DNA of 64,000 nt from Herpetosiphon aurantiacus DSM 785 (GCA_000018565.1 CP000875.1:505199-569198); one strand, 5' to 3'. Shown: positions 1,521 through 44,501, counted from the first letter of the stretch. Notes: generated by a model not told the origin, from the letters alone. Made by a program: numbers and translations.

Positions 1521-1645
1521 AAGCCAGACCCCAGCTTGGTTGTTACCAAACTGGGGTTTTCGATTAAGTTGCTGCTTAGTACTCATTGGCAGCTAGAGTT
1601 TCGCCCCACGGCATTGGTTGGTTGCAGTCACAAAACTCATATCCT
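1521..1645. repeat. Direct repeat copy A (about 125 bp, about 80% identical to 4413..4537). Contains a terminator hairpin agaccccagcttgg..ccaaactggggt.
   Basis: Aligned by eye to copy B. The reverse strand reads L*LPMSTK, a decayed version of the protease C-terminus LYLPMITK* that copy B encodes. Confidence 0.7.
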
Positions 1646-1763
1646 TGTGTGTACCCAATCAGTCTTGGGGCTGATGGGTACTCAGTCATGCGATGGGCTA
1701 GCTTTGGGGCCAAGCGGCTTAAACTGAGCCTGTGCTTACATCCATGCCAACGAGGAGACCACG

Positions 1764-2774
1764 GTGTCAGTTATTGATGTTCGTAATTTGGGCAAAACCT
1801 ACCGCACCATTGAAAAAGAAGGCGGAGTCAAAGGGGCGATCAAGGCGCTCTTTCGGCCTCAATATCGCGAAAAAGTGGCAGTTCACGATTTGAATTTTCA
1901 AATCGATGCTGGCGAAATTGTCGGCTATATTGGAGTCAATGGCGCTGGCAAATCGACCACAATCAAAATGTTGACGGGAATTCTCTACCCTACGACTGGC
2001 GCTGTTACAGTTTTGGGTCACGATCCGCAGCGTGAGCGGGTGGCTAATGCGCGTAATATTGGGGTCGTGTTTGGTCAGCGTAGCCAGTTATGGTGGGATT
2101 TAGCGCTGATCGAATCACTCAATTTGGTTGCCAATATTTATGAAGTCGAGCCAAGCCGCTATAAGCAATTGCTCAGCCATTTCAGCGAGGTCTTAGAGCT
2201 TGACGAAATTTTAAAAACGCCGATTCGCTCGATGTCGCTCGGCCAGAAAATGCGAGCCGAACTAGCGGCAGCCTTCATTCACGAACCCAAAATTGTGTAT
2301 CTTGATGAGCCGACGATCGGGCTTGATGTCATGGTCAAACAGCGGATTCGCGAATTTATTAAAGATTACAACCAAACGCATAATACGACGGTGATGCTTA
2401 CGACCCACGATTTAGGTGATATCGAGCAGCTTTGTTCGCGGGTGATCATCATTGATGCTGGCAGCAAAGTCTACGATGGGCCGTTGCATGCCATCAAGCA
2501 ACAATTTGGCAAATATCGCACAATTACCTTTGAAACCAACCAACCAATTACCAATGTGCAATTGCCACCAGCCTGCGAGCAATTAAGTTTGAGCGAATAT
2601 AGCCTTGAATTGAAGTTTGATCGCAGCCAATTAAGTGCCAGCCAAGTAGCCACAGCCTTGATGCAGCAAATAGATGTGGCCGATTTTACCTTGAATGAGC
2701 CTGATCTTGAGAGTATCATCAAACATTTATATCAAAACCCCACAGCCTATAACGAGGTAGCAGTTAATGAATAA
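1764..2774 (+). CDS. ABC transporter ATP-binding protein (GTG start)
   Basis: Walker A GVNGAGKST, ABC signature LSLGQKMR, Walker B IVYLDEPT. RBS GAGGAG 8 nt upstream of GTG. Confidence 0.9.
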   Translation: MSVIDVRNLGKTYRTIEKEGGVKGAIKALFRPQYREKVAVHDLNFQIDAGEIVGYIGVNGAGKSTTIKMLTGILYPTTGAVTVLGHDPQRERVANARNIGVVFGQRSQLWWDLALIESLNLVANIYEVEPSRYKQLLSHFSEVLELDEILKTPIRSMSLGQKMRAELAAAFIHEPKIVYLDEPTIGLDVMVKQRIREFIKDYNQTHNTTVMLTTHDLGDIEQLCSRVIIIDAGSKVYDGPLHAIKQQFGKYRTITFETNQPITNVQLPPACEQLSLSEYSLELKFDRSQLSASQVATALMQQIDVADFTLNEPDLESIIKHLYQNPTAYNEVAVNE

Positions 2775-3579
2775 ACTTGCTTATCGTTTGCGCATCTATC
2801 GCAGTGTGGTTGGCATGAATATTAAAGAAATGCTAGCCTATAATTTATGGTTTTGGTCGCAGCTTGGGGCGCATCTCTTCCTCACAATTGTGTATGTTTC
2901 GTTTTGGAAGGCACTGTATAGCGAACGCGAAACCATCGCAGGCCTAACCATGCAACAAACCTTAACCTATATCATCTTGGCCCGCATGATTGCGCCATTG
3001 GTACAATGGGGCTATACCCAAGAATTTGGCTATTGGATTCGTGAAGGCACCATTTCTAGCGAATTATTGCGACCAGTTGATTTTCAAGAACGCATTTTTA
3101 TTGGACATCTAACCAGAACGTTTGTTGCCTTAGCGCAACAACTTTTAGTAACCGGCAGCTTTGCAGTTTTAGTGTTTGATATTCGCTTACCAACTGATCC
3201 ATTAATTTGGCTAAGTTTTCTGATTTCGTTATTACTTGGCTGTAGTATTTTATTCTGCTTTGATTGGATTTTTGGCTGTGTCGCTTTTTATTCAACCGAA
3301 GTTTGGGGTTTACAAGTCGTGCGAGGCTCTATTTTGATGCTGTTTAGTGGCGTACTTTTGCCATTAACCATGTTGCCTTCAGGTTTACAAACCCTTGCCC
3401 AATGGATGCCCTTTGCTCAAAGTGTGTCGATTCCGGTATCGTTATTGAGCGGCATTACGCCACTGGATCAGCTTGGATCGATTTGGTTGCAACAATTAGC
3501 TTGGCTAGCGGTCATGTTAATGCTTTCCCGCTTGATGTTCAACTTCAGCGTGCGCAAAATAACCGTACAAGGTGGCTGA
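2767..3579 (+). CDS. ABC-2 type transporter permease
   Basis: Multi-TM hydrophobic protein. ATGA overlap with the ATPase gene. RBS gaggt. Confidence 0.8.
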   Translation: MNKLAYRLRIYRSVVGMNIKEMLAYNLWFWSQLGAHLFLTIVYVSFWKALYSERETIAGLTMQQTLTYIILARMIAPLVQWGYTQEFGYWIREGTISSELLRPVDFQERIFIGHLTRTFVALAQQLLVTGSFAVLVFDIRLPTDPLIWLSFLISLLLGCSILFCFDWIFGCVAFYSTEVWGLQVVRGSILMLFSGVLLPLTMLPSGLQTLAQWMPFAQSVSIPVSLLSGITPLDQLGSIWLQQLAWLAVMLMLSRLMFNFSVRKITVQGG

Positions 3580-3581
3580 TA

Positions 3582-4370
3582 ATGCTGCGTTATAGCAAAA
3601 TCTATTGGTATTTCGTCGTTCAGCGTTTCAAAATTTTGATGGAATATCGGCTGAATTTTTTTATTGGCTCGATTTCAACCGTGCTATTTCAAGGTGCGAG
3701 CATTATTGCAATGTGGGCAGTTTTGCGCCAAGTTCCAAGCATCCAAGGCTGGACACTTGAGCAAATTCTACTAATTTACGGCTTGTTGACCTTATCCAAA
3801 GGCATCAATCATTTGTTTGCTGATAATCTTTGGGTGATTGGGCGCGATTATATTCGACCTGGCCAATTTGATCGTTTTTTGGTGCGGCCAATTAATCCAT
3901 TATTCCATTTATTAGCCGATCGAATTTGTCATGATGCGATTGGTGATTTTATTGTCGGCTTTGGCTTGGTTGGTTATGCAATGGTCAAGTTACAATTACC
4001 AATTACCCTGGCAAGCATTAGTTTTATCATATTAATGGTTATCAGTGGGGGCATTATTTTTATTGCGCTGAATTTAATCACTGCGGCAACTGCTTTTTGG
4101 ATTATGGATTCAATTCCGGTAACCAATCTAGTGTTCAGCACCAATGAATTTGCGCAATATCCGCTAACCTTTTATCATCGCTCAGTCGGCATTTTATTGA
4201 CATGGCTGTTACCATATGGCTTTGCCTCGTATTATCCGGCCAGCTATTTACTCGGCCACTCGATTGGCTGGATGGCATGGCTGGCTCCGCTGATAGCGCT
4301 CGTGAGTATCACCATTGCCTATCGCTTTTGGGTATTTGGCCTCAAACACTACGGCAGCACTGGCTCGTGA
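3582..4370 (+). CDS. ABC-2 type transporter permease (second)
   Basis: In-frame ATG at 3582, 2 nt after the previous stop. Multi-TM. The longer 3402 start would overlap the upstream permease. Confidence 0.8.
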   Translation: MLRYSKIYWYFVVQRFKILMEYRLNFFIGSISTVLFQGASIIAMWAVLRQVPSIQGWTLEQILLIYGLLTLSKGINHLFADNLWVIGRDYIRPGQFDRFLVRPINPLFHLLADRICHDAIGDFIVGFGLVGYAMVKLQLPITLASISFIILMVISGGIIFIALNLITAATAFWIMDSIPVTNLVFSTNEFAQYPLTFYHRSVGILLTWLLPYGFASYYPASYLLGHSIGWMAWLAPLIALVSITIAYRFWVFGLKHYGSTGS

Positions 4371-4412
4371 GAATTGCTCTACGGGTTGGTATTCTACCTT
4401 CAATCGCTAAAA

Positions 4413-4537
4413 AGCAAGACCCCAGCTTGATAATAACCAAGCTGGGGTCTCCAATTAAGCTGCTACTTGGTGATCATTGGTAGATAGAGATTCGAGCCAC
4501 GGCACTGGTTGGTTTCAGTTACGAAGCTGATATCATC
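4413..4537. repeat. Direct repeat copy B. Its left part is the intrinsic terminator of the protease gene; its right part encodes the last ~25 codons of the protease.
   Basis: Hairpin 4417..4450 (agaccccagcttg/caagctggggtct) with a T-run on the minus strand. Similar to 1521..1645. Confidence 0.7.
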
Positions 4538-7516
4538 GATACTAAAGCGCACAATGTTGGCAGTTGAGTTATTGACTGAATCGAAGCGCAAGACATGCTC
4601 GCCGGCACTCAGATCGGTCAACGGAATCGTGACTTTGGCATAGCCATTGTCATATTCGGTATTTGCGTCGCTAACCCGGAAAATTTCCTCACCATCAAGG
4701 CTAAGCTTGACGTAATCTTGAATTCCCCGACCGTTATGCGCGTAAATCGAGAGGTAGAATTCCAGCGTTGCATCGCCTGCGGTTGTCGTGAAGGTTTGTT
4801 GGGCAAAGGCTGTTTCGGTCGTGCCTGAGCGTGCGCCAAAGCGCAACCAACTTGTGCCAGTCCGTGGTGCGCCAGCACAACCAGGCAATGAACACAATGG
4901 CGGCGAAACATCGCTAAATGAGTTTGAGAAGGCTTGCCAATTGGTGCCAAGCTCGAAGCCACCATTAATCAGGCTTTGGCCAGCTGGCTCAACCTCGATA
5001 TTAAATACTTGACTGGCTGTCAGGTTGCCGCTATCGCGCACAGTTACGGTAATCGGGTAGGTGCCAACTGCGCTGCTACAGGCACAATTCACGTTAGCCT
5101 TCAAGATCCCAGCTTGGTTGCTGATGCTAACGTTCATGCCTGTTGGTGCGCCAGCGGTACTGACTGTCAACGCACCCGCCAAATCAAGATCATCCGAGGC
5201 AGTGCCAATGGTCGCGCTGGTTTGCTTGCCTTGTTGCACCAATACGTCGCTGCTAAGGAACAAACTTGGCGCGGCTGGTGCGGCTGGGCCATTACAGGTG
5301 TAAATTTCAAAGTCGTCGATCGACCAGGTAACTGAGCGATTTGGCGTTGGGGTATCGCCAAGCGCGACCTTGAATCGGAAGCGGATCGATTGCCCAGCCA
5401 AGCTGGCTAAGTTCAAGCGGCTGGCGTTATAGCCATTGCTGTTGCCAACATAGGCTTGCTCGCCGCCAAACGCGCCATCTTCGGCGATATTAGTTGGGCC
5501 GTTGAAGCTAAACAAACCAGCAGCTGACTGCCAAGTACTACCATTGTTGGTGCTATATTCCACCACGCCCGCATCGATTGGCGCATAGAAATCATAGGCA
5601 TGGCGGAAGTAGGCAAAGCCATTGGCGGGAACCGTGACACTCGCATTTTGGGTAAAGGCCGATTCTTCAACCGCCTGATTCCACCCATACACACCGTTAT
5701 AGTTGGTTGCTGAGCCACTACCGCTAGTTGCATATGTCCCAACGAGTGGCGCTGGATTGGTAGTCCAAGTTTCGGTGCTGCCACTCAAGGCGCTTGCACT
5801 CCAACGATTATTGGGCAAGGCCTCAAAATCTTCGTTGAAAACGGTCGTTTGGGTTTGGCCAGGGCTACAAGCAGCAATATCAGGGGCTGGCGCGTTGGTT
5901 GGCTGAAGATCCATTTCGGTTGCCAAAATGGTTTTATTGACTTCAACACAATCGGCGGCGGTAATCCCATGGCTGCCTGTCAGGCTGGTACAGGCTTGGC
6001 GCAAGGCCGAAGCAAGGTCGGCATAATCGCTGCCCGAAGTTAACGAGCTAATTTGGGTTTCATAGAATAAATGGGCAGTTTTGGTGATGCCAATTGAGGC
6101 GATGGTTTGGCCGTTGAACGTATCGCCATCGCTTAAAAGATAGGCAGCCTTATTGGCGACACCACTGTTACTGTGCACCCCACCACTATCAAGCAGATTA
6201 GGATCGAGCACATACAATTCGCTCAACATGCGGTCGGGCTGATCACCTTGGGTTGGGTCTTGCATATTGCGAATCCCGCCCAAATCCTCGCCCATAATCC
6301 AGCGGGTAGTTTCGTCATCGTCGGCGCTACCATTGGTTTGATCCATAAATTCGCCGAAGATATCCGACATGGCTTCGTTGATTGCACCTGATTGGAAGTA
6401 GTAGAACAGGTTCGAGGTATATTCGGTTACCCCGTGCGACAATTCGTGGGCAACCACATCGTCGGCAGCAGCAAAGCCTTGGCCATAGGTCATTTGGCGA
6501 CCATTCCAGAAGGCGTTGCCATACGGGCAGCCCGCGCCAGGTGGGCAGTGCTTGACCAGTGAGATCAAGTTCATGCCGTTGTTGTCGATGCTGTTACGGC
6601 CAAAGAACAAGTTGAAGAAGTCGTAGGTATCACCCGAATAATCGTAAGCGGCATCGATATCAGCATCGTTGCTAGCGGCTGAGCCTTCGGTGCGCACATA
6701 TTCGCTTGGTTGATCACAGTTGTTATTGGGATTATCGTCGTTATCGACCACGTTGTTATCGTTACAAACGAAGCGATTTTTAGCAAAGCCAATTTGATTG
6801 AAGGCTAAGCTAATTTCGCCTGACTGGGCGTTAACGAACACATATTCGCGAATCGGGTTGCTGCTGGTTGATTCAACCGTAACAAACCAAACCAGGCTGC
6901 TTTTTTGTAAGCCTGTGCCACCCAACAAAGCTGGGTTATAAATTGCTAATTCGCTTTTGCTCACGTTCAACGCTGCCAAATTGACATCGTATTTGGTGGC
7001 AACATAGGTTTGGGCGGTATTAATCGCCTTGGCTTGGTCAATTTTGGGGTTGGTGTTTAAATTGAGATTTGGCAACACTTCGCCGTTGATGCTCAGTAAT
7101 TCACCAGCCTGATTGACTTGAACTTGCAATTCGCCAGCAATGACTGGCACGCCTTGGTAGCGCTGTTTATAACGCACAACCTGGCGACCATCTTGGGTGG
7201 TGCTAGTTTTGGCAACGGTGGCATCGCTGGCTTGAGCTAAGCCGAACAAATTGCCATATTCAGCCAAATAGGCATTGGCAATGTTGAGCGTATCAGCGCG
7301 ATTCAAGCCTACTGGTTGATCGAGGGTTGTGCCAGCGGCTGCGCCAATCCAGCGCACATAGCCAGTTTGGCTGTGGCGAGCAACATTGGCTCCTTGGCTG
7401 AGCAAGCGATTGATGGGCGAATTGGTGGTGGGCGTTTGGGCATTGCTCCGGCTTAACGGCAGCATGCTCACAACAATTAATACTGCTAGCAAACGCAGCA
7501 TTCGCATCGAACGCAT
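4463..7516 (-). CDS. Secreted M4 (thermolysin-family) zinc metalloprotease with a long C-terminal extension
   Basis: HExxH in VVAHELSHGV, then GAINEAMSDIFGE (the third Zn ligand region). Signal peptide MRSMRMLRLLAVLIVVSMLPLSRSNAQ. RBS aaggaaag before the ATG at 7516 (the 7654 start is rejected). Confidence 0.85.
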   Translation of the reverse strand: MRSMRMLRLLAVLIVVSMLPLSRSNAQTPTTNSPINRLLSQGANVARHSQTGYVRWIGAAAGTTLDQPVGLNRADTLNIANAYLAEYGNLFGLAQASDATVAKTSTTQDGRQVVRYKQRYQGVPVIAGELQVQVNQAGELLSINGEVLPNLNLNTNPKIDQAKAINTAQTYVATKYDVNLAALNVSKSELAIYNPALLGGTGLQKSSLVWFVTVESTSSNPIREYVFVNAQSGEISLAFNQIGFAKNRFVCNDNNVVDNDDNPNNNCDQPSEYVRTEGSAASNDADIDAAYDYSGDTYDFFNLFFGRNSIDNNGMNLISLVKHCPPGAGCPYGNAFWNGRQMTYGQGFAAADDVVAHELSHGVTEYTSNLFYYFQSGAINEAMSDIFGEFMDQTNGSADDDETTRWIMGEDLGGIRNMQDPTQGDQPDRMLSELYVLDPNLLDSGGVHSNSGVANKAAYLLSDGDTFNGQTIASIGITKTAHLFYETQISSLTSGSDYADLASALRQACTSLTGSHGITAADCVEVNKTILATEMDLQPTNAPAPDIAACSPGQTQTTVFNEDFEALPNNRWSASALSGSTETWTTNPAPLVGTYATSGSGSATNYNGVYGWNQAVEESAFTQNASVTVPANGFAYFRHAYDFYAPIDAGVVEYSTNNGSTWQSAAGLFSFNGPTNIAEDGAFGGEQAYVGNSNGYNASRLNLASLAGQSIRFRFKVALGDTPTPNRSVTWSIDDFEIYTCNGPAAPAAPSLFLSSDVLVQQGKQTSATIGTASDDLDLAGALTVSTAGAPTGMNVSISNQAGILKANVNCACSSAVGTYPITVTVRDSGNLTASQVFNIEVEPAGQSLINGGFELGTNWQAFSNSFSDVSPPLCSLPGCAGAPRTGTSWLRFGARSGTTETAFAQQTFTTTAGDATLEFYLSIYAHNGRGIQDYVKLSLDGEEIFRVSDANTEYDNGYAKVTIPLTDLSAGEHVLRFDSVNNSTANIVRFSIDDISFVTETNQCRGSNLYLPMITK

Positions 7517-35421: not shown

Positions 35422-36429
35422 ATGCACTATCGAGAATATCGAATTTCAGCGGTTGGTGTGCGTTCGCTTTGTTGGGACAAACAGAAACTGATTGATTGGG
35501 TGACTGGAACAATCTATCAACTTAATGGAACTGCTGACCGATTTCATCGTGGCTATGGTCAAACATTTGACGCGGCGGTGCAATCGACATCTGGTGATTT
35601 AGCAGTTATTTACCAGCGCCTTGGCACAGCGGGAATGCTGATTGATCGGCATAAGCCACTACGAACGTTAACGCGTGATAAATACCATGCTACTATTTAT
35701 GAATATCCCGTTGGGTTTCTTCACGATGCTCAAGGGCGTGAATTGTTGATCCATTGCCCTGAACGTTATCTCAAACTTGAAATTGAAGAGGCCCGCACCG
35801 GGCGTTCAGCAGCCTCGTTGAATAAAACCCTCATTGAGCGCTTAAGGTTATGGTTTGCCGAAACGGATGATCGTAATCCGATGGATATATTTCACTCGCG
35901 CTTAATCCAAAGCCCTGGTGGTCGGTGGTTGTTGAATGCTGGTTGGATTTGGCATCCGTATGATACCTTCGTGCTGTATGAAGTAGCCGATGTATTAGCC
36001 GATCCCCGTATGCTTGATTCGAATCACTTTGAATTTGCCTATCCAATAGTTGCTGAGATTAGTGCCGCAGCGTTTCTTGATGATCAAACCTTAATCCTTG
36101 TTAACAGCGAATATCCGGAAGATGATGAAGAATCTCCTAAGTATCACGAAGATCCGCTGTTCCATAGTGGCCCTTATAGCATTGGTAGCTACGATCTGAT
36201 TAATCGTCGCTATCGTTCGGTTGTCAAAGCTGAGGAAATTGTTGGCACCATGATGCCATTAAGCGAGCGCTATTTAATTGGTTTTTACAAGCACCCAAAA
36301 TTATTCGATTGTACGACTGGTAAGATTATTCAGCGCTGGCCACAGCTTAATACAGGCACGCAAACCAGTAGTTTATTAATGAAGCCAGAGTTGATTCCCC
36401 CACCGTTTGCCTTTGATCAAGCTAACTAA
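35422..36429 (+). CDS. Hypothetical protein, paralog 2. An in-frame TAA at 36427..36429 truncates it relative to paralog 1; the remaining tail (RFAVADAKGITVIELSD) is still readable downstream.
   Basis: FAFDQAN then TAA, then cgttttgcggtggccgatgccaaggggattacggtgattgag, which matches the paralog 1 C-terminus. Confidence 0.7.
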   Translation: MHYREYRISAVGVRSLCWDKQKLIDWVTGTIYQLNGTADRFHRGYGQTFDAAVQSTSGDLAVIYQRLGTAGMLIDRHKPLRTLTRDKYHATIYEYPVGFLHDAQGRELLIHCPERYLKLEIEEARTGRSAASLNKTLIERLRLWFAETDDRNPMDIFHSRLIQSPGGRWLLNAGWIWHPYDTFVLYEVADVLADPRMLDSNHFEFAYPIVAEISAAAFLDDQTLILVNSEYPEDDEESPKYHEDPLFHSGPYSIGSYDLINRRYRSVVKAEEIVGTMMPLSERYLIGFYKHPKLFDCTTGKIIQRWPQLNTGTQTSSLLMKPELIPPPFAFDQAN

Positions 36430-36518: not shown

Positions 36519-37400
36519 TTGGGGTTGGCAATGCGGCGACAAAAACCATTGGATTGGGCAACACTTGGGCCAATTGCGGTGCTGTTGGGCTTGTTATTGT
36601 TGATTGTGAATCAGCTTAATCAACCCAAAAATCAGTATGCTCCGTTGAGTGCCTATTTTAATGATGCTGCGGCGAGTGTGCCGCAAAGCCAACTTACCCC
36701 CTTGCCGCCCACAACGTTACAAGCGATTGAGCAAAGCAACGCCGCTGGCAGCTCCAACCAAATCGATTTGGTACTCGAAGCTGAGCTGTATCAAGACCAA
36801 AGTAACGAGTTAGCCAGCGAATTGCAAATTGCCCTCGATTATGTTCAAGAACGTACCAATATCCGTTTGGCCGAACGGGTTACGGTGGTGATCAGCCAAG
36901 ATGCCCAATGTGGCTTCCATGGCGTAACCTACTCCGATGTGCGAGTGATTTATATCTATAGTTGTGCTGGGGTGGCACGCAGCCGTGTGGTGAATATTGC
37001 TGCTCATGAATTTGTCCATCAATTAGAGCAGGATCGCTATGGCGCTGCCCATTTGAGCACCGACTTGGTGCTTTCTGAGGGTTTTGCAACTTGGGGCGCT
37101 GGCCGTTATTGGCTGGGCAGTGCCAGCGATTTTACGAGCTTTGCCCGCGATTATCAGGCCAACGGGCAAGCCTTACCCTTGGCAACCCACTATGCTGGCG
37201 TTGGCATCGATGGTATGAACGTGCTCTATTATCAATGGGCGAGTTTTGTCGATTATTTGATTAATAACTATGGCCGTGAAGCCTTCGATCAATTGTATAT
37301 TTCGGGTGGCGAACGTCAACCTGGCGCAGCCAATTACGCAGCAATCTACAATCGCTCGTTTGGTTTGCTTGAGGCTGAATGGCGGCAAACGCTGGATTAG
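36519..37400 (+). CDS. Membrane-anchored hypothetical protein with an HExxH motif (putative metallopeptidase-like)
   Basis: N-terminal TM segment. AAHEFVHQLE motif. Confidence 0.5.
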   Translation: MGLAMRRQKPLDWATLGPIAVLLGLLLLIVNQLNQPKNQYAPLSAYFNDAAASVPQSQLTPLPPTTLQAIEQSNAAGSSNQIDLVLEAELYQDQSNELASELQIALDYVQERTNIRLAERVTVVISQDAQCGFHGVTYSDVRVIYIYSCAGVARSRVVNIAAHEFVHQLEQDRYGAAHLSTDLVLSEGFATWGAGRYWLGSASDFTSFARDYQANGQALPLATHYAGVGIDGMNVLYYQWASFVDYLINNYGREAFDQLYISGGERQPGAANYAAIYNRSFGLLEAEWRQTLD

Positions 37401-37442
37401 GCCGTGCTACAATGGCCCAAGCAATTGTGCAAAGGAGAGTCT

Positions 37443-38342
37443 ATGCATCCGCCGTTTGGTCCGAATTTGCTTGAGTTAGGCCCGATTGTAATTCGTATGT
37501 ATGCGATTGCAATTTTGAGTGGCGCTATGCTGGGGGGCTGGCTCGGCGCTCATCGTGCCCGCGCCCGTGGCTATAATCCCAATATCGTTTGGGATTGGTT
37601 GATCGTTGGCTTGATTTTGGGCGTTGCCGGCGGGCGAATTTGGTATGTGGCTTCATCGTGGCCGCAATATCGTGATGGCCCATTTATCGATATGATCAAC
37701 ACTACAAAGGGCGGCTTGGCCATTCACGGAGCGATCGTTGGCGCAGTATTGACGGTGATCATCGCCGCCTGGCGCACCAAAACCAATGCTTTGACCTGGA
37801 TGGATGTCTTGGCTCCATGTTTGAGTGTTGGTCAAGCGATTGGGCGCTGGGGCAACTTTTTCAATAACGAAGCCTACGGCGGCCCAGTTAGCAACGGTTT
37901 GCCCTGGAATTTGGATATTCCAGCTCAATATCGGATTCGTGGCACTGAACAATATGATGCCTCAACCCGTTTTCATCCCACCTTTTTATACGAATCGCTT
38001 TGGAATTTAGGCGTGTTGTTTTCGATTGTCTTTATCGAACGCCGCTTTCGTGGGCGCTTACGCAACGGCGATTCATTGCTGATTTATGGTGTGCTCTATT
38101 CGATTGGCCGCTTTTGGATCGAAGATCTGCGGGTTGATAAGCTCTGTACTGGCGGCGTTGGTGGCGCGATTTGTAACGATAGCCTCTCGACCGCCCGTTT
38201 GACCAGCATTGTGTTGATTGTTGGTTGTAGCGCCTTGTTTGTGTTGCGCCGAGTGTTGCAGCGCAATCCACCAGCCAGCAGCTACCAACAATGGGATGAA
38301 CCATGGCAACCAGAGCCTGAAACCGCCAAAGCCGCCGCTTAA
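37443..38342 (+). CDS. lgt: Prolipoprotein diacylglyceryl transferase Lgt
   Basis: Lgt signature region GGRIWYV...HGAIVG...GRWGNFFNNEAYG. RBS aggag. Confidence 0.9.
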   Translation: MHPPFGPNLLELGPIVIRMYAIAILSGAMLGGWLGAHRARARGYNPNIVWDWLIVGLILGVAGGRIWYVASSWPQYRDGPFIDMINTTKGGLAIHGAIVGAVLTVIIAAWRTKTNALTWMDVLAPCLSVGQAIGRWGNFFNNEAYGGPVSNGLPWNLDIPAQYRIRGTEQYDASTRFHPTFLYESLWNLGVLFSIVFIERRFRGRLRNGDSLLIYGVLYSIGRFWIEDLRVDKLCTGGVGGAICNDSLSTARLTSIVLIVGCSALFVLRRVLQRNPPASSYQQWDEPWQPEPETAKAAA

Positions 38343-38478
38343 TCACGATCAGGAGCTTGGGGAATTGACCTCAAGCTCTTTTTTCGCAACAATCCAGCTC
38401 TAACCCACGTATGTTTTGCAAGATTTTTAATCCCCATTGGCCGTTTCCTGCGATGTTCTTTTTGAGAAAGGGTCTGCT

Positions 38479-39903
38479 ATGTTTGGAGTTCTGCGTGGGT
38501 GCTCGCCGCACCTCGATCAACCGACCCATGCCGCGTGGTGGAGCCACATTTGTGGTATGTGCCTAACCTTGCGCGACCAGCATGGCCAAGTTGCTCGCAT
38601 TACCACCAATTACGATGCTGCTTTGCTTTCGGCGTTGTACGAAGCTCAACGCGCTGAGCAAGGCTCCCGCCGCACGAGTGTTTGCGCGTTACGTGGTTTT
38701 CGGGCGCTCGATGTGGTCGCTGCTGATAATCATGGTTCACGCTATGCTGCCGCCGTAAGTTTGCTGATGGCCGCAATTCGGCTGCGCGATAATGTGGCCG
38801 ATCGCGATGGTTGGGCTGGTAAAGTGCCCTTGGTTGCTAACACGGTTGCTAAACGTTGGGATAAAAAAGCTGAGCAAACCGCCCGTGAGTTGGGCTTCGA
38901 GCCAGCTTTATTGCGCCAACAAGCCGTCGCTCAGGCTGAAGTCGAGGCCTTGGTCAATGCCGATTTTTGCACCTATTCGGCTCCGACTGAAGCTGCGGTG
39001 GGTGCGGCGTTTCGGCATACGGCGATTTTGGCCAACCAACCGAGCAATGCCGAGCCACTTGAGCAAATGGGCCGTATGTATGGCCGCATGATGTTGCTGC
39101 TCGATAGCTACAACGATGTGGCTGAAGATCAAGCCCGTGGCCATTTCAATGCCTTGTGTGCCACGCCCCAAGCCGAATTGCGCACGGTTGCCCATAAAAT
39201 CTTCAACGATGCTTTTGCCAATTTGCGCCAACAATGGCAACGTTTGAGCTTGCTGCAAGCACATTTGGTTGAAGTGTTGTTGCTGAATATGTTGCCAGCA
39301 ATTGGCTCGAAAGCCTTTGGCGCATGCAAACGCCATAGTTTGGCTTGTGCCACGGTCTTGCCAGTTGCGGCGGCTTTATTACCAGCCATGGCCAGCGATT
39401 ACGATGACGATCCTTCACGGCGCGACCCCAACCGCGCTTATACTGGGCCAACCCGCGCCCTCAAGCCCCACGAAAACCCTGAATATCAAGGTCAATATCC
39501 ACAACAGCCGCCCTATCAAGGCCAATATCCGCAACAACCATATCAAGGCTATCCACCACAATCCAATCCAAATGATCCCTCGATGTTGCCGCCTGGCTCG
39601 TTGCCGCCAGCTAGTTCACACCCGGTTCCGCCGCCAGGCCATTATCAAGATCGTAAGCGCGATGTAGCGATGGGCGCAGCCTTATGCTGTTGTCAGAGTC
39701 GTAGCCGTCGTCACCACCACTCGCATCGTTCACGTATCGTGTGTTGTGACGATGATTGCTGCGATTGTTGCCAATGCACCTGCTGCTGTTGCGATGCCAC
39801 CGATGCCTGCGAAGGCGATGGTTGTAGTTGCTGCGAATGTGGGGGCTGTGGTGAATGTGGCAGTTGCTGCGAATGTGGCGATTGCTGTAGCTGTGATTGT
39901 TAA
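38479..39903 (+). CDS. Hypothetical protein with a Pro/Gln/Tyr-rich repeat region and an extremely Cys-rich C-terminal tail (metallothionein-like)
   Basis: YQGQYPQQPPYQGQYPQQPYQGYPPQ, then CCCQSRSRRHHHSHRSRIVCCDDDCCDCCQCTCCCCDATDACEGDGCSCCECGGCGECGSCCECGDCCSCDC. Confidence 0.7.
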   Translation: MFGVLRGCSPHLDQPTHAAWWSHICGMCLTLRDQHGQVARITTNYDAALLSALYEAQRAEQGSRRTSVCALRGFRALDVVAADNHGSRYAAAVSLLMAAIRLRDNVADRDGWAGKVPLVANTVAKRWDKKAEQTARELGFEPALLRQQAVAQAEVEALVNADFCTYSAPTEAAVGAAFRHTAILANQPSNAEPLEQMGRMYGRMMLLLDSYNDVAEDQARGHFNALCATPQAELRTVAHKIFNDAFANLRQQWQRLSLLQAHLVEVLLLNMLPAIGSKAFGACKRHSLACATVLPVAAALLPAMASDYDDDPSRRDPNRAYTGPTRALKPHENPEYQGQYPQQPPYQGQYPQQPYQGYPPQSNPNDPSMLPPGSLPPASSHPVPPPGHYQDRKRDVAMGAALCCCQSRSRRHHHSHRSRIVCCDDDCCDCCQCTCCCCDATDACEGDGCSCCECGGCGECGSCCECGDCCSCDC

Positions 39904-39965
39904 CATAAGCAACCCCGCCAAGCAGCCTAGTCGCTTGGCGGGGTTGCATTGTTTATCTGTAGTTT

Positions 39966-40412
39966 TTAGGCGCGGGCAGTGATTTGGCGGCCAGTCAAGC
40001 GTGGGCTGAGCAAGTTGTCAAGCGCCAATGAGCCTGAGCCAAGCAGCACCAAAGCCACGCTAGCAGCGATCAACGCCAACACATATTCGTAGCCACCTTC
40101 GCGTGATGAGAAGCCAGCATCCAAGTGCACGGTAACCAAAGCCACAACCATAGCGATTGCTTCAGCCACTGCAACATAACGAGTAAACAAGCCGAGCATC
40201 AACATAATCCCGCCGATCAATTCCGTTGCAATCAACAAAATTGCCATAAAGGTTGGCGCTGGAATTCCAAGGCTAGTCAAGAAGCCAGCGGTTCCCTCAA
40301 TCCCGCCATTGAATTTATCCAAACCGTGCATAAAGAAAATAAAACCAACGACAATCCGCAAAATGGCGATGCCAAAACCTGGCTTATCGAGTAATTTATT
40401 GATGCTTGCCAT
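39966..40412 (-). CDS. DoxX family membrane protein
   Basis: About 148 aa with 4 TM helices. The LRIVVGFIFFMHGLDKF region is typical of DoxX. RBS aggag. Confidence 0.75.
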   Translation of the reverse strand: MASINKLLDKPGFGIAILRIVVGFIFFMHGLDKFNGGIEGTAGFLTSLGIPAPTFMAILLIATELIGGIMLMLGLFTRYVAVAEAIAMVVALVTVHLDAGFSSREGGYEYVLALIAASVALVLLGSGSLALDNLLSPRLTGRQITARA

Positions 40413-40712: not shown

Positions 40713-43043
40713 TTATTTGGCGGTTGCACTTTGGCGTTTGACGGCAACCTCAGTTTTGCGATGCTGCAAGTGCTCGGCAATCACATAAGAGCCAATCACA
40801 AATGCGCCAGCTGCAACTTGGGCCGCAATGCCTTCCCACGTCGCATAGAAACCCAGCCACATATTGGCCCAGTAGGGGATTTCGAGGCTACGAATTGGGT
40901 GCAGCGGCATCCAGCCAACCAACTGCATAATGTGCATGGTGTTGCCAACCATAATCAACAAGACCGCGCCAATCATCACCCCAGTCACGATCAGCATCTT
41001 CTTATGGGGCAATTTGGCTTGCAGTCCAAAGACCAGCACACCAACCAAGGCTGTGCCACCAAGCCCCATAGCCACGCCGGCTAACACCACTTGGGTGCTG
41101 GCTTCAAGCACGAGCGCTTGCAAAAAGAGCACAGTTTCAACGCCTTCACGGTAGATGCTGGTAAAGCCCAAGGTGATCAAACCGAGCCAAAGCCCAGCCT
41201 TGCCACCAATAATTCGGCGCTTTTGGGCATGAAAATTGGCCATCCAGCCAGTCCAGTAGACTTTGTGGAAAAACCAGTTGGTGATTAACAACAGCACGGC
41301 GATGGCAATTAATGAAACAATCGCTTCGATCTTTTCTTGATCGCCACGCCGAATCAGTTCGGTGATCAAGCCCCGCGCCAGCACCCACGTCAATACCGTT
41401 GCTAACATGGCGAGGGTTGCACCGATCCAAATTGGTTTGCGATAGCCACGTTGTTCGCCAATTTTGAGGCTTGCCAACAACGAAGCCAAAATTAACACCG
41501 CCTCTAAGCCTTCGCGAAACACAATCACGGCGGCGCTAGTTGCTACCGCTTCGGGCGTGCTAGAGCCGCCAAGCGCATCTTGGGCTAAATCCAATTGTTT
41601 ATCCAAGGCTTGGCGGCTAGCGCGAATATCGCTGAGCGAAGCTTTTTGGCGAATCAACTCAGCTAGGCCAGTAAATTCATCTTTGCCATACCAAAACAGG
41701 TTTTCAATTGGCGCTTTATATTCAGGAGCAAACACAATCAAACGCGCTTCTGGGCCAGATTCCAACACAGCGTAGGCTTCCAAACGGGCCGATTCGGCGA
41801 GATCATATTGGTCGCCAGCCACCGCATTTTCCATCTGATCAAGCATTGAAGCGATTACATCGAAATCGCCTTCGAGGCTGGATTTCTGCCACTCGGCGGG
41901 CATAATTTCGGCCAAGGTTGTGGTGATATGATCGACTTTGGCTTGAACCGCATCTGGCTCGGCCACACTCGTCCGTTGAGCTGCAGCGGTCAGCATCGTT
42001 TCCAGCTCGCGTAGATCGCTGGCGACTTGTTGAGTTTTGGTCGAATCAATTGCGATCAAAAGGCTTTCGAGGTCGCTAAAGGCAGCGGCTGCGCCATTGC
42101 GAAAGGTCGTTGCTTCTTGAATTTCGAGATCCAGCGTAACTTGGCCGTTGCGCACGCCTCGTTCATATTCTACTGGCACTAAGCTTAAGAAACGGCGCAT
42201 CTGGCCAGCGCGGCGTACTTGCTCCGATGGGCTAAGGGGAGCCGCCCGAAAACCGCTCAGCGAGCCTTCAAAGCTGCCGATTGCCGCTTCAAGCTGGTTG
42301 TTGCTGAGTGCTGCTTGACGTAAGTTTTCAGCATTAACCAAAGCTGCATCGACCTTCTCAGGGTGCTGGCTACGATAGGCTGGCTCTAAAATAGCAAAAT
42401 AGCCTTGAATCGCCGCACCAGCCTCAGCTTGTTGAATTAAATTGCCTTTTTGGGCAGCGCTGCGTAGAGTGCGCAAACTCTCGTTAAGCTTGGCCTGATA
42501 GGTATCCAACAAATCGGCATCAAGGGCAGTTCGCGCATCGGCGGCGCTGTAGGCTGCTTGTTTCCATTGCTCGATTGCCCGAGCAGCATCGCCGTTGGGG
42601 CGCGAAAAACGGGTGGCATTGCGAAATTCGCGAACGGGCAGCCATTGCAGTGCTTGCTCAGGTTTGCCAGTATCGATCGCTTGACCAACAATTCCATAAC
42701 TGGCCTTGAGCAAATGCGTCCAGAGCAAAGCCCGTTGTTGGGCAAATCCGGCCACATCTTGTTTTTCCAAGGCTTGGGCTAAATCGGTCCAACGTGTGGC
42801 GATTTCCGCTGCTTGTTGGGGCGCTAAATTGGTCAAATCTTTAGCCAAGGCCTGATCGTACAAGGCTTGGGCTTGGTTAAGCAGGCTTTGGGCTTGAGCA
42901 GGATCATTGGTGAGAATTAATTGGGCTTGCACCAGCAGCGAACGCACCGATTCGCTGGCTTGGGCTGGTGATGGTTCGGCTGCCATGGCCGACCATGGCA
43001 ATAAAGAGACGACCAACGCCAGCAAAAAACGACGCAACCACAT
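40713..43043 (-). CDS. FTR1-family high-affinity iron permease fused to a roughly 480-aa N-terminal periplasmic helical domain
   Basis: Signal peptide MWLRRFLLALVVSLLPWSAMAA. Two REGxE motifs (FREGLEAVL, YREGVETVL) in the C-terminal 7-TM region. RBS taggag. Confidence 0.8.
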   Translation of the reverse strand: MWLRRFLLALVVSLLPWSAMAAEPSPAQASESVRSLLVQAQLILTNDPAQAQSLLNQAQALYDQALAKDLTNLAPQQAAEIATRWTDLAQALEKQDVAGFAQQRALLWTHLLKASYGIVGQAIDTGKPEQALQWLPVREFRNATRFSRPNGDAARAIEQWKQAAYSAADARTALDADLLDTYQAKLNESLRTLRSAAQKGNLIQQAEAGAAIQGYFAILEPAYRSQHPEKVDAALVNAENLRQAALSNNQLEAAIGSFEGSLSGFRAAPLSPSEQVRRAGQMRRFLSLVPVEYERGVRNGQVTLDLEIQEATTFRNGAAAAFSDLESLLIAIDSTKTQQVASDLRELETMLTAAAQRTSVAEPDAVQAKVDHITTTLAEIMPAEWQKSSLEGDFDVIASMLDQMENAVAGDQYDLAESARLEAYAVLESGPEARLIVFAPEYKAPIENLFWYGKDEFTGLAELIRQKASLSDIRASRQALDKQLDLAQDALGGSSTPEAVATSAAVIVFREGLEAVLILASLLASLKIGEQRGYRKPIWIGATLAMLATVLTWVLARGLITELIRRGDQEKIEAIVSLIAIAVLLLITNWFFHKVYWTGWMANFHAQKRRIIGGKAGLWLGLITLGFTSIYREGVETVLFLQALVLEASTQVVLAGVAMGLGGTALVGVLVFGLQAKLPHKKMLIVTGVMIGAVLLIMVGNTMHIMQLVGWMPLHPIRSLEIPYWANMWLGFYATWEGIAAQVAAGAFVIGSYVIAEHLQHRKTEVAVKRQSATAK

Positions 43044-43313
43044 ACAAGCTCCTAAAAATGTGATTTGCTGCTGCTCACGTTGGGCAACAGCATAGTAAAC
43101 CGACAAAGGACGTGACCTGCATGCCAACAGTTCACGCCCTTTGCTCCTTAAGTTGCTTGATGGAGGGACGCACACCCAGCTCCATCAACCTTGCTCTGTC
43201 GCAACTTCTTGCTCATTGATAGCATAGATATACCTGTGGTGTAGCCAGCATATCTATTGTACGAGGATTTGTTAATCCGTTCGCGAACCTATTTTATACT
43301 GAGAATAAGCAGC

Positions 43314-44390
43314 TTATTCGCTGATTTTAATATTCAAACGAGCAGCAATTTGGCTGACTTGACCTGTAATTGCATCAGCACGATTTTGGGCTTCAGCACC
43401 AAGCAAATCGGATTCTTCAGCCGTAAAGTGTTGGCCAGCTTGTTCTTTTTTATAGACATCGGCCACAAAATCGCGTAATGCTTGCAAATTGGTTTTGATT
43501 TGGCGATCTTGGTCGGCATCGAGCGCGGCAACTTTAGGGCTGAGGCTATCGTACACCACCTGCAAACTGCCCAAAATATCGCCAATATCGGCCAATCGTG
43601 AGATAGCCACAAAATCGCGTTGGGTGCTGCTATCGCCAGCCACAAAGCGTGAGTTCTTCCATGAATCGAAATATTCGTTCATGGTTGGCACCATCACGAC
43701 CAAGGCGCTAAATGCATCGGTGTCGGTTGGTTCCCAAGCCTTGGCAGCGGTATCAAGCTCGGTTGCAGTGGCTTTGAGCTTTTGGGCAGCGGCCAACAGC
43801 ACATTGGCTTCGGGCAACGATTCGCCAAATTCTACCGTGCCGTTGCCATTGATATCAGCTTCAACATCGGTAACGCGGAAGGCATCGTAAGTGCCCCAGA
43901 GCGTGCTTTCGGTTACGCCAAACAAATTACCAGGTTTGGCAATCGTGCGGCCATCAGCTAACGTCAAATCATAATTGACCACGCTATCGCCGCCTTCTTC
44001 TGCCGAAGCACCAGCATCAAGCGTCACATCGAAATCGGCCAAACTGCTTACGCCTGCAACGATCCCTTCCATTTGCTCGTAGGTAGGGCTGGATTTCAAC
44101 CAAGCGGCTTTGGCATCGTTTAATGCAGTGCCAACCTCGGCTTGTTTGCTACTCCAGAGGGTCGCATAATCAAAATTGGCAGCTTTCGCCAAATCATAAT
44201 AACGCTGACTTGCGGTCTCCAAAGCGGTGCTGCTATTGATCAAATCGCCAGTTTTGCCCAAAAGATAGGTCTTGATTGCCCCAAGTTCGCCAGCAGCAGG
44301 TGCTTGGGTCGGTTGAGTGGTAGGAGCAGTTTCAGCGCCACAGCCAGCGAGAACTGCCACAAGGGTTAATGCACAAAGCCAACGATACAT
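43314..44390 (-). CDS. Lipoprotein partner of the FTR1 permease (possibly EfeO/imelysin-like)
   Basis: Lipobox LAGC. All-helical Ala/Asp/Glu-rich protein. Same operon as the FTR1 gene. Confidence 0.5.
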   Translation of the reverse strand: MYRWLCALTLVAVLAGCGAETAPTTQPTQAPAAGELGAIKTYLLGKTGDLINSSTALETASQRYYDLAKAANFDYATLWSSKQAEVGTALNDAKAAWLKSSPTYEQMEGIVAGVSSLADFDVTLDAGASAEEGGDSVVNYDLTLADGRTIAKPGNLFGVTESTLWGTYDAFRVTDVEADINGNGTVEFGESLPEANVLLAAAQKLKATATELDTAAKAWEPTDTDAFSALVVMVPTMNEYFDSWKNSRFVAGDSSTQRDFVAISRLADIGDILGSLQVVYDSLSPKVAALDADQDRQIKTNLQALRDFVADVYKKEQAGQHFTAEESDLLGAEAQNRADAITGQVSQIAARLNIKISE

Positions 44391-44501
44391 GAGCCAGAAA
44401 CCTCCAAATGCCAAAGCTTGTAGTTAAATCGGTTAATACTGAAAAAACAGTTTTTATTGCGATTGGCAGAGTATACGTCGCGCTAATACTTCTGTCAAAC
44501 G

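Follow-up and report, generated by a model that had tools for sequence, protein, structure and literature searches.

A DUF5685 protein of Herpetosiphon aurantiacus that joins a predicted isoprenoid synthase-fold domain to a conserved cysteine string

The window considered here is a stretch of 64,000 nucleotides from Herpetosiphon aurantiacus DSM 785 (GCA_000018565.1, CP000875.1:505199-569198), and the gene under study occupies positions 38479 to 39903 of it. The encoded protein is 100% identical to ABX03117.1 (WP_012188025.1, UniProt A9AV39) of the same strain and occurs in identical form on 11 contigs, the 6.35-Mb chromosome among them. It is named 'DUF5685 family protein' by NCBI and 'Expression regulator' by UniRef. 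The product is a cytoplasmic protein in three parts: a 280-residue DUF5685 domain, a disordered linker and a C-terminal cysteine string. A first-pass annotation, made from the sequence alone, had already recognized a single long open frame and the fusion of a cysteine-rich tail to a large globular domain, and both descriptions hold. Membership of the DUF5685 family, the isoprenyl diphosphate synthase fold of the domain and the genuineness of the conserved tail can be stated with high confidence. The elements of the gene are as follows.

38479..39903, plus strand: complete coding sequence of the DUF5685 family protein, 474 amino acids and a stop codon in one open frame, from the open reading frame (ORF) and its translation
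38479..39318, plus strand: N-terminal DUF5685 domain (residues 1-280), predicted all-helical with one β hairpin, trans-isoprenyl diphosphate synthase (IPPS) fold
38545..38562, plus strand: H23-x-C25-G26-x-C28 motif in the first long helix; C25, G26 and C28 invariant in the tailed and the tail-less clade
38683..38697, plus strand: C69-A-L-R72-G in the β hairpin; C69 is the third invariant cysteine, placed by alignment with 4lob
38788..38802, plus strand: D104-N-V-A-D108, first Asp-rich motif (DxxxD), invariant in the tailed clade; D103 and D107 are the equivalents in the tail-less clade
39103..39150, plus strand: D209-SYN-D213-VAE-D217-QARGHF-N224, second Asp-rich motif (DxxxDxxxD...N), invariant in the tailed clade, at the position of the second aspartate-rich motif (SARM)
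39337..39396, plus strand: hydrophobic stretch SLACATVLPVAAALLPAMAS (residues 287-306) without charged residues and with Pro, flanked by KRH and DYDDD
39397..39681, plus strand: Pro/Gln/Tyr-rich linker (residues 307-401), predicted to be disordered from its composition and model confidence below 50
39682..39900, plus strand: cysteine-string tail (residues 402-474) with 28 Cys, 9 Asp, 7 Gly, 7 Ser and 4 Glu, ending in CSCDC
39697..39735, plus strand: basic, His-containing patch SRSRRHHHSHRSR (residues 407-419), which separates the first Cys triplet (LCCCQ) from the main Cys run

The tail is the most conspicuous of these elements. Cysteine makes up 28 of its 73 residues (38%) and 47% of the final 53, and the probability of at least 28 in 73 is 8e-38 given the 0.92% Cys of the window's other long ORFs. 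Elsewhere in the window, no six-frame ORF of at least 100 residues exceeds 8 Cys per 73-residue stretch. The final 53 residues show 9 CC, 8 CxC and 4 CxxC motifs and no aromatic residue at all, and the tail as a whole contains no Trp. Basic residues upstream of the Cys run, here the patch SRSRRHHHSHRSR, are common among homologs (RRR, RKKR). The cysteine excess, the three kinds of cluster and the His/Arg patch had all been picked out by the first-pass annotation. The Tyr/Gln/Pro repeat that it described lies in the linker (residues 336-361, 39484-39561), but as two full copies of YQGQYPQQP and a partial YQGYPPQ, not as three full copies. Both the length and the sequence of the linker vary among homologs. 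The stretch SLACATVLPVAAALLPAMAS between domain and linker reaches a Kyte-Doolittle hydropathy of 1.89 over 19 residues, is modeled with a confidence below 50 and is conserved within the Herpetosiphonaceae; it may interact with membranes. Residues 301-474 match no Pfam family at E up to 10, and searches of NCBIfam and PADLOC give no match for the tail.

Judged by its conservation, the tail is a selected protein feature and the hallmark of a whole Actinomycetota/Chloroflexota clade. Relatives are present in at least 584 species genomes of these two phyla (one genome scanned per species). In the best 80 species loci, which serve for the tail count and for the comparison of neighborhoods, the reading frame from domain to cysteine tail is unbroken in 78; of the remaining two, one ends at a contig edge and the other has 9 Cys. 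Except for three fragments, the 120 best database homologs carry 10-28 Cys in their last 60 residues and typically end in ...CDCGCDC; they span the Chloroflexota, Streptomyces, Kitasatospora and many other actinomycetes. In a library of 50%-identity representatives, 1,947 clusters are matched with an E-value of at most 1e-3, and 142 of them reach 1e-30. Nearly every full-length member of its best 150 clusters is tailed, the exceptions being fragments or evident frameshift entries (e.g., P0171, P0216, P0228) that end in the Ala/Thr/Val frame of the same DNA. The tail is kept over a G+C span from 49% (the window) to high-G+C Streptomyces. Across the family, it contains 37.5% Cys, 15.5% Asp and 13.8% Gly, with hydrophobic and basic residues very scarce (aromatic about 4%, aliphatic about 3%), and its length has a median of 46 residues (range 13-122). 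CxC (mostly CDC), CC and CxxC dominate, the residue between two cysteines being most often Asp.

A comparison with the ortholog of Herpetosiphon sp. NSE202 points the same way. Over 62 aligned tail codons there are 22 synonymous and 7 non-synonymous differences, all indels are in frame and 9 of the 25 conserved cysteines use the other codon; by this codon evidence, the tail is under purifying selection between the two Herpetosiphon species. That the tail is an artefact of assembly or of a frameshift, or arises when a TG(C/T)-rich repeat of low complexity is read through, has next to no chance of being right. Such an origin could be suspected because the other frames are open, giving Ala/Val/Thr-rich peptides, and because a few database homologs end in Ala/Thr/Val tails. 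It is excluded by the comparative data just given, the frame being kept across the species loci and the protein being the same on every contig. In addition, the 28 Cys codons are divided evenly (14 TGC, 14 TGT), which rules out a simple DNA repeat as the basis of the tail; the sole repeat reported by Tandem Repeats Finder is an 18-nt unit of 3.4 copies with 70% matches at 39826-39887. The first-pass annotation had raised a nucleotide-repeat artefact, a frameshift that removes the tail and homologs lacking the tail as weak points of its description, and none of them materializes. Three further ORFs of 63-112 codons overlap the tail DNA at 39611-39982 on both strands and in other frames. They would encode Ala/Val/Thr- or His/Arg/Asn-rich peptides and are by-products of the TG(C/T)-rich coding DNA, not genes.

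The region just ahead of the tail differs between lineages. Actinobacterial members (L009-L087) have a segment not found in Herpetosiphon, composed of a basic patch, a hydrophobic Cys-rich GCAVWAGLxCTCQxCC and a near-invariant DPW(S/T)G. Many Chloroflexota tails open with a Trp beside the first Cys. By analogy, this tail-adjacent Trp may be relevant to prenylation, as the known peptide prenyltransferases of IPPS fold are directed to Trp.

For the N-terminal domain, the first-pass annotation could name no family, and here it has to be corrected. Residues 1-261 match positions 1-254 of the 272-position Pfam profile DUF5685 (PF18937) with an E-value of 4.6e-28 and a score of 98.8 bits (cut-off 26.7); NCBIfam has no model for this domain. 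In an AlphaFold2 model built from an alignment of 58 homologs, the predicted local distance difference test (pLDDT) exceeds 93 for residues 11-280 and lies between 82 and 96 for the N-terminus (MFGVLRGC). The β hairpin is at residues 64-80, and everything past residue 283 falls below 50, as expected for disorder. When this model is used as a Foldseek query, the top 50 matches all belong to one superfamily, and on this modeled structure the domain is a class I isoprenoid synthase (trans-isoprenyl diphosphate synthase) fold. Sequence similarity to the enzymes of that fold is faint: the best Protein Data Bank match of the family profile is the polyprenyl synthetase 4lob (E 0.01, in two aligned stretches), and the Pfam family of polyprenyl synthetases (PF00348) gives no match at E up to 1.

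The conserved residues were read from two alignments, one of the fused clade, in which domain and tail form one protein (58 sequences), and one of a tail-less clade described below (26 sequences). In the fused clade, M1, F2, G3, C25, G26, C28, C69, D104, D108, D209, D213, D217 and N224 are invariant or nearly so, and their equivalents are invariant in the tail-less clade (for the second motif D200, D204, D208 and N215). R40, T43, N44, D46, R72, E156, P169, T170, G198 and R203 are further invariant residues of the fused clade. D104 and D108, at the C-terminal end of the helix formed by residues 85-108, fall on the first and the last Asp of DDxxD in 4lob, and D209, D213 and D217 with its DDxxDxxxD (DDILDYTSD). 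In the first aspartate-rich motif (FARM) and in the SARM, Asp stands at the first and last positions (D104/D108; D209/D213, with D217 in addition), but N/H or S/A takes the place of the second Asp in each 'DD'. Class I terpene synthases have an NSE/DTE triad, which the i, i+4, i+8 spacing of the second motif appears to resemble.

The features that bind isopentenyl diphosphate (IPP) are replaced. C69 and R72 align just past the position of the IPP-binding GGKRxRP loop of 4lob, so that the hairpin C69..R72 stands for this loop; P169-T170 stands for the 'KT', and L206 for the Gln before the SARM. C25, C28 and C69 would form a 3-Cys(/His) metal-type site gained in place of the IPP site, a location that follows from the alignment. 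Its fourth position varies: the fused clade has H23 there and the split clade Tyr, and C8 is not kept throughout. From this pattern of retained and lost residues, the domain is probably a diverged enzyme of the class I isoprenoid fold that still binds Mg-diphosphate and has lost IPP condensation.

A second line of evidence comes from relatives in which the domain lacks the tail. They were reached through P0262 (290 residues), the sole extra protein returned when P0230 was used to search for low-G+C relatives. The tail-less and the fused clade are homologous across the whole domain (hhalign of the two alignments, probability 99.1%, E 4.7e-19), and the tail-less proteins retain the same invariant Cys and Asp residues. 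In all seven P0262-like loci that reach far enough (L088, L090, L091, L092, L093, L094, L097), the gene that follows overlaps the DUF5685 stop codon and is translationally coupled to the DUF5685 gene. Its product has 229-287 residues and carries at the C-terminus a hydrophobic stretch of about 20 residues followed by a Cys cluster (e.g., GCVCECMDC, LLCECFDSCDC); the ends read ...AAAAAIIGCVCECMDC, ...LLAVIGCICECADC, ...AFVLLCECFDSCDC and ...CEPCTVCNCCSSCCSMTNG. Ends of this kind are uncommon: at least 4 Cys in the last 20 residues occur in 24 of the 1,731 ORFs of 30 or more codons in the tail-less loci, most of these 24 apart from the partners being short spurious ORFs. A cysteine is the very last residue in 7 of the 9 trans partners and in 46 of 80 fused proteins, often as part of CxC or CC.

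Two other tail-less loci extend this picture. In L099, which belongs to another subclade, the gene directly 3' of the DUF5685 gene (1791-2420) encodes a J domain with the HPD motif (PF00226, E 4.3e-20), a Gly/Ser/Tyr/Asn linker and a C-terminal FCAKLCALDMCMNLCCDMDVCLCC. The P0262-clade partners give no Pfam match to the J domain; aligned with the L099 protein by hhalign, they show a weak similarity (probability 36%, E 3.8e-4) in a middle region outside the J domain. In L102 (29% G+C; 1531-3339), a 63-residue ORF two genes downstream is Cys/Asp-rich in its C-terminal half and ends in ...NDDCCDDACEAACCGAGVGCCDGICDDTCM, and the intervening gene encodes a 278-residue protein with several Cys motifs (e.g., CKIKCSLFNYCCGYCP). 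Neither product has a Pfam match. The arrangement of L102 is reminiscent of loci for peptides that are made by the ribosome and modified after translation (RiPPs). Taken over all these loci, the DUF5685 domain and a Cys-rich C-terminal module co-occur, fused or adjacent, across a very deep divergence of the sequences. Such co-occurrence in cis and in trans (a Rosetta-stone pattern) argues for a direct functional relation between the two.

The surroundings of the tail-less genes have features of their own. Five loci share a same-strand row of genes (L088 886-10990; L090 1468-10900; L091 864-10864; L092 1386-10870; L093 1556-8173). It begins with an EccC/FtsK-like ATPase of about 1,100 residues, a helical protein of 57-63 residues, the DUF5685 protein and the Cys-tailed protein of 230 residues. 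It continues with a 340-residue unknown protein that ends in CxxC..C, an NrdG-like radical-SAM activase (182 residues), a Ser/Thr kinase, a further unknown protein of 390 residues and, last, an FHA protein. The row stays below threshold for every system model of PADLOC and NCBIfam, and it looks like an undescribed multi-gene system. Clade B has a conserved neighborhood of a canonical polyprenyl synthase (PF00348, E 2e-43), a truncated Hsp70 of 510 residues and a DUF2232 membrane protein; the DUF5685 gene and an unknown gene of 157-173 codons converge on this trio (L111 4001-8640; also L103, L105-L108, L114-L117). In one subgroup of clade B, the polyprenyl synthase itself ends in ...DCLGGGCSEECSPID. 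J-domain or Hsp70 proteins and isoprenoid genes are recurrent side links of DUF5685 loci.

The preferred reading, which is tentative, is that of a prenyltransferase-like enzyme with the cysteine string as its acceptor or partner, S-prenylation taking place in cis. The domain would be a Mg2+-dependent transferase that binds a prenyl diphosphate and does not elongate the chain. Both acidic motifs would bind and ionize the allylic prenyl diphosphate, and the 3-Cys(/His) site would carry a metal, in the simplest case Zn2+, to place or activate a thiolate. In S-alkylation, zinc-activated thiolates are the rule. The flexible linker would then bring the enzyme's own cysteine string to the active site for S-prenylation of its thiols in cis, and the split systems would do the same in trans, so that a tail at first acidic and soluble would become a membrane anchor with several lipids. 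Such an anchor would be the bacterial counterpart of eukaryotic lipidated cysteine strings and CXC/CC tails, and the enzyme a Cys-directed relative of the ComQ-type peptide prenyltransferases. This model is preferred because it explains the most observations: the IPPS fold with its Mg motifs, the 3-Cys site, the flexible linker, and a cysteine string found both in cis and in trans. Enzymes of IPPS fold that prenylate the peptide encoded by an adjacent gene are established (ComQ/ComX, PalQ, the ChrPC P domain, StheQ/StheX; PMC13290415; bioRxiv 10.64898/2026.08.29.745113). Also in favor are two isoprenoid neighbors, the polyprenyl synthase of the clade B neighborhood and the lycopene cyclase of L010, and the frequency of a final Cys in fused proteins and trans partners. 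The wider proposal, that DUF5685 proteins are the first bacterial protein-cysteine S-prenyltransferases, being IPPS-fold, Zn-assisted enzymes that poly-prenylate a cysteine string (their own tail, a J-protein or a downstream peptide), is speculative and must be regarded as somewhat unlikely.

Several observations weigh against S-prenylation of the string. Twenty-eight cysteines flanked by Asp are far beyond the need of an anchor, and carboxylates nearby raise the pKa of a thiol. In composition, the tail looks closer to phytochelatins and metallothioneins than to known lipidation sites. The AlphaFold2 model leaves it undocked (pLDDT 35-45). The J-domain partner and the peptide partner are each known from one locus, and no Cys-rich partner lies within the flanks examined in clade B (L103-L117). 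For the fused clade, no conserved operon emerges among the 80 species loci, where neighbors track lineage, so that the pathway finds no corroboration there. Literature searches on DUF5685 returned a mention in a list and no functional study. The characterized peptide prenyltransferases of the trans-IDS-like kind (trans-IDS, trans-isoprenyl diphosphate synthase) are all directed to Trp, not to Cys (PMC13290415), and they share a Gln directly upstream of the second Asp motif (PMC13290415, section 2.4), a position held by Leu (L206) in the window protein and not by Gln in the consensus of the fused clade.

Among the other explanations, a tail of the metallothionein or phytochelatin type is a live rival, although not the best-supported reading, and its correctness is doubtful without being far-fetched. 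The thiolates of the tail, reduced in the cytoplasm, would gather Zn(II), Cu(I), Cd(II) or Fe into clusters that buffer, store or sense the metal, and the tail might also supply or control the metal sites of the enzyme. Phytochelatins, (gamma-Glu-Cys)n, alternate acid and Cys, which the tail recalls; it also has the appropriate Cys/Asp/Gly composition, the CxC, CC and CxxC motifs, few aromatic or aliphatic residues and, in Herpetosiphon, a His-rich patch ahead of it. As in metallothioneins, length and sequence vary while the composition is kept. A profile match to a metallothionein-1A fusion is weak and non-significant (E 3.1), and any such peptide would be expected to bind soft metals in vitro. 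The composition is thus chemically compatible with the thiolate metal binding suggested by the first-pass annotation. A metal role is not backed by any Pfam metallothionein model or by a metal-resistance or metal-transport gene among conserved neighbors; the EfeU/EfeO-like genes lie on the other strand and are not conserved beyond Herpetosiphon. The tail is strongly acidic, and metallothioneins are usually balanced by Lys. Metal binding would also leave unexplained the constant tie to an IPPS-fold domain with invariant catalytic-type residues, and the short clusters of 4-8 Cys behind a hydrophobic stretch that tail-less clades provide on J-domain-type proteins. In short, that the Cys module travels in cis and in trans is accounted for by a relation of enzyme and partner but not by a plain metal sponge.

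Less probable still is a membrane tail-anchor of CYSTM kind, an unlikely reading in which the hydrophobic stretch ahead of the cysteines spans the membrane. The acidic tail would lie outside, disulfide-bonded or metal-binding, and the domain would act on a polyprenyl lipid at the cytoplasmic face, with the tail as no substrate. Actinobacterial homologs indeed have a hydrophobic Cys-rich segment of about 20 residues (e.g., LLAGCAVWAGLACTCQMCC) after the basic patch, the window protein carries SLACATVLPVAAALLPAMAS at residues 287-306, and the trans partners show a clear hydrophobic stretch ahead of the Cys cluster. A Kyte-Doolittle value of at least 1.6 is reached in 33 of the 80 proteins, but the hydropathy collapses when Cys is scored as neutral. 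The Herpetosiphon segment has two Pro and is short in close relatives, and many Chloroflexota-type members (e.g., P0012, L010) lack any hydrophobic stretch between domain and tail; a transmembrane topology is therefore no family-wide requirement. The order of a PQY-rich region and then a hydrophobic, Cys-rich end is also that of eukaryotic CYSTM proteins, and one Streptomyces homolog is named CYSTM domain protein in UniRef, yet the Pfam CYSTM family matches neither the tail of the window protein nor those of five homologs. Translocation driven by the membrane potential favors acidic tails, a point for this topology. An Fe-S or redox enzyme is more improbable again. Here a [4Fe-4S] cluster with one iron left free would sit on the three invariant Cys, in the manner of IspG, IspH or radical-SAM enzymes, and act on a diphosphate substrate, and the tail would be a cluster reservoir, scaffold or redox buffer. 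Exactly three invariant cysteines (a CxxC and one distant) with a variable fourth position in all clades would suit such a cluster, but they fit a catalytic Zn site equally well, and we know of no Fe-S enzyme with the IPPS fold. The NrdG-like activase in tail-less operons is confined to one clade. Ferredoxin-type and thioredoxin-fold proteins occur in clade B neighborhoods, and the fused clade shows no link to Fe-S assembly genes. S-prenylation of the string in cis or in trans thus stays the preferred, if tentative, interpretation.

The start and the end of the gene in the window are accompanied by two further elements.

38464..38472, plus strand: Shine-Dalgarno-like GAGAAAGGG, 6 nt 5' of the ATG, a putative element from reading of the sequence
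39909..39947, no strand assigned: GC-rich hairpin of 16 bp between the convergent DUF5685 and DoxX genes, from a terminator scan of the sequence

The ATG is taken as start because of the conserved MFG N-terminus. A longer frame from a TTG at 38437 is unlikely, the homologs all starting with MFG(V/I)xR at the position of the ATG. The hairpin, a strong one as read from the sequence, is likely a bidirectional terminator. Rfam and tRNA scans of the window returned nothing. Upstream lies lgt (37404-38342; PF01790); downstream are the convergent DoxX gene, then an FTR1-type permease gene and then one for an imelysin. The same order is found in Herpetosiphon sp. NSE202 and nowhere else among the 80 species loci. 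The neighborhood differs elsewhere: in Streptomycetaceae, the neighbors are a divergent sepF paralog and an acyl-CoA dehydrogenase gene, in Pseudonocardiales the locus lies between coaE-region genes and uvrB, and Streptosporangiales and Chloroflexota have other arrangements. These neighborhoods are lineage synteny and no functional cluster. The adjacency to lgt noted in the first-pass annotation is real in the window but limited to Herpetosiphon and therefore carries no functional weight. A role as Lgt substrate or lipoprotein was considered and rejected: the protein lacks a signal peptide and a lipobox context, its N-terminus belongs to the fold, and lgt is a neighbor in two Herpetosiphon genomes only, the MFG N-terminus being conserved also in clades that do not adjoin it. 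The legacy names 'expression regulator' and 'regulatory protein' are treated as old annotation, as the protein has no DNA-binding domain and the names no other support.

Some of the neighbors deserve mention in their own right. The FTR1-family iron permease (40713-43175, minus strand) has 820 residues, with the permease part at residues 547-750 and an unusually long N-terminal extension of about 540 residues without Pfam match. Together with the imelysin (Peptidase_M75, EfeO-like; 43314-44414, minus strand), it would form an EfeU/EfeO-like iron uptake pair. Upstream of lgt, two genes without Pfam match (36519-37400 and 35422-36429, both plus strand) are syntenic in NSE202 (L008). A 293-residue protein encoded there has an N-terminal hydrophobic segment and a HEFVH (HExxH-type) motif, which suggests a membrane-anchored metalloprotease. 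In a metagenome-assembled genome of the Chloroflexales (L010), a lycopene cyclase gene (PF05834, E 5e-85; 4114-5346, minus strand) lies divergently upstream of a fused-type DUF5685 gene, an arrangement seen once.

The existence of the gene is not new, as it was already catalogued in a family of domains of unknown function. Published descriptions were not found for three of its aspects: the trans-prenyltransferase fold of DUF5685 with its acidic motifs, the clade-wide cysteine string, and the pairing of tail-less relatives with Cys-rich C-termini encoded in trans, one of them on a bacterial J-domain 'cysteine-string' protein. The family is large, with most Streptomyces-type actinomycetes among its species (the Streptomyces coelicolor ortholog is presumably SCO1748), and for none of its members is a function described. 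Should the tail accept prenyl groups, bacteria would S-prenylate proteins with a fold so far known to prenylate Trp only. Bacterial Hsp70/J-protein systems would be linked to isoprenoid lipid anchoring, and a prokaryotic counterpart of cysteine-string and Rab-type anchors would exist as a new ComQ-like branch. Should it be a metal-thiolate module instead, the tail would rank among the densest genetically encoded thiol ligands known, placed on an isoprenoid-type enzyme. Either outcome would give a function to a conserved Streptomyces gene, and simple mass-spectrometric or metal assays would suffice.

Compared with known systems, the window protein is a bona fide member of Pfam DUF5685, whose model spans the N-terminal domain only. 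It shares the class I all-α fold with the trans-isoprenyl diphosphate synthases (e.g., solanesyl-, nonaprenyl- and hexaprenyl-diphosphate synthases, IspB and farnesyl diphosphate synthase). In contrast to their DDx2-4D and DDxxD, it has DxxxD and DxxxDxxxD, and it adds the HxCGxC...C metal-type site and the C-terminal Cys string. CYSTM proteins (PF12734) share the Pro/Gln/Tyr-rich region and the Cys-rich hydrophobic C-terminal part. They end right after the transmembrane segment, whereas DUF5685 proteins continue for 40-70 acidic Cys-rich residues and some members have no hydrophobic stretch. With metallothioneins, phytochelatins and SlyD/HypB-type tails, the cysteine string has in common its Cys content, the CxC, CC and CxxC motifs, the paucity of aromatics and the disorder, and it sits on a folded protein as in SlyD. 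Unlike metallothioneins, it belongs to an enzyme-like protein of 474 residues, is acidic, is tied to one fold and lacks a metal-homeostasis context.

The eukaryotic cysteine-string protein (CSP/DNAJC5) and CXC/CC-tailed Rab GTPases are anchored to membranes through a dense string of Cys once it carries lipids. The lipid is attached by DHHC enzymes in CSP, which is S-palmitoylated, and by zinc enzymes of α-α-barrel fold in Rabs, which receive geranylgeranyl groups. Neither type of enzyme is present here, and the window protein has no J domain. The L099 partner nevertheless has the CSP architecture of J domain, low-complexity linker and Cys string, and many DUF5685 tails end in CxC or CC; the likeness is one of layout, not of sequence homology. 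ComQ/ComX, PalQ, the ChrPC P domain, StheQ/StheX and Ord1 likewise combine an IPPS fold with a genetically linked peptide or protein, which is the candidate acceptor in the present case. In trans-IDS-like peptide prenyltransferases, the prenyl group is usually placed near the C-terminus of the adjacent-gene product (PMC13290415; bioRxiv 10.64898/2026.08.29.745113). The layout of comQ-comX resembles that of a DUF5685 gene followed by an overlapping gene whose product has a conspicuous C-terminus. Unlike in ComQ-type systems, the candidate acceptor is a Cys run that forms one protein with the enzyme in some 600 species or more, and both the Gln and a Trp in the tail are missing. The window protein is thus not a canonical IPPS, a ComQ-type Trp prenyltransferase, a metallothionein, a CYSTM protein or an Lgt substrate; by analogy, it is probably the ComQ-type prenyltransferases that it resembles in its mode of action.

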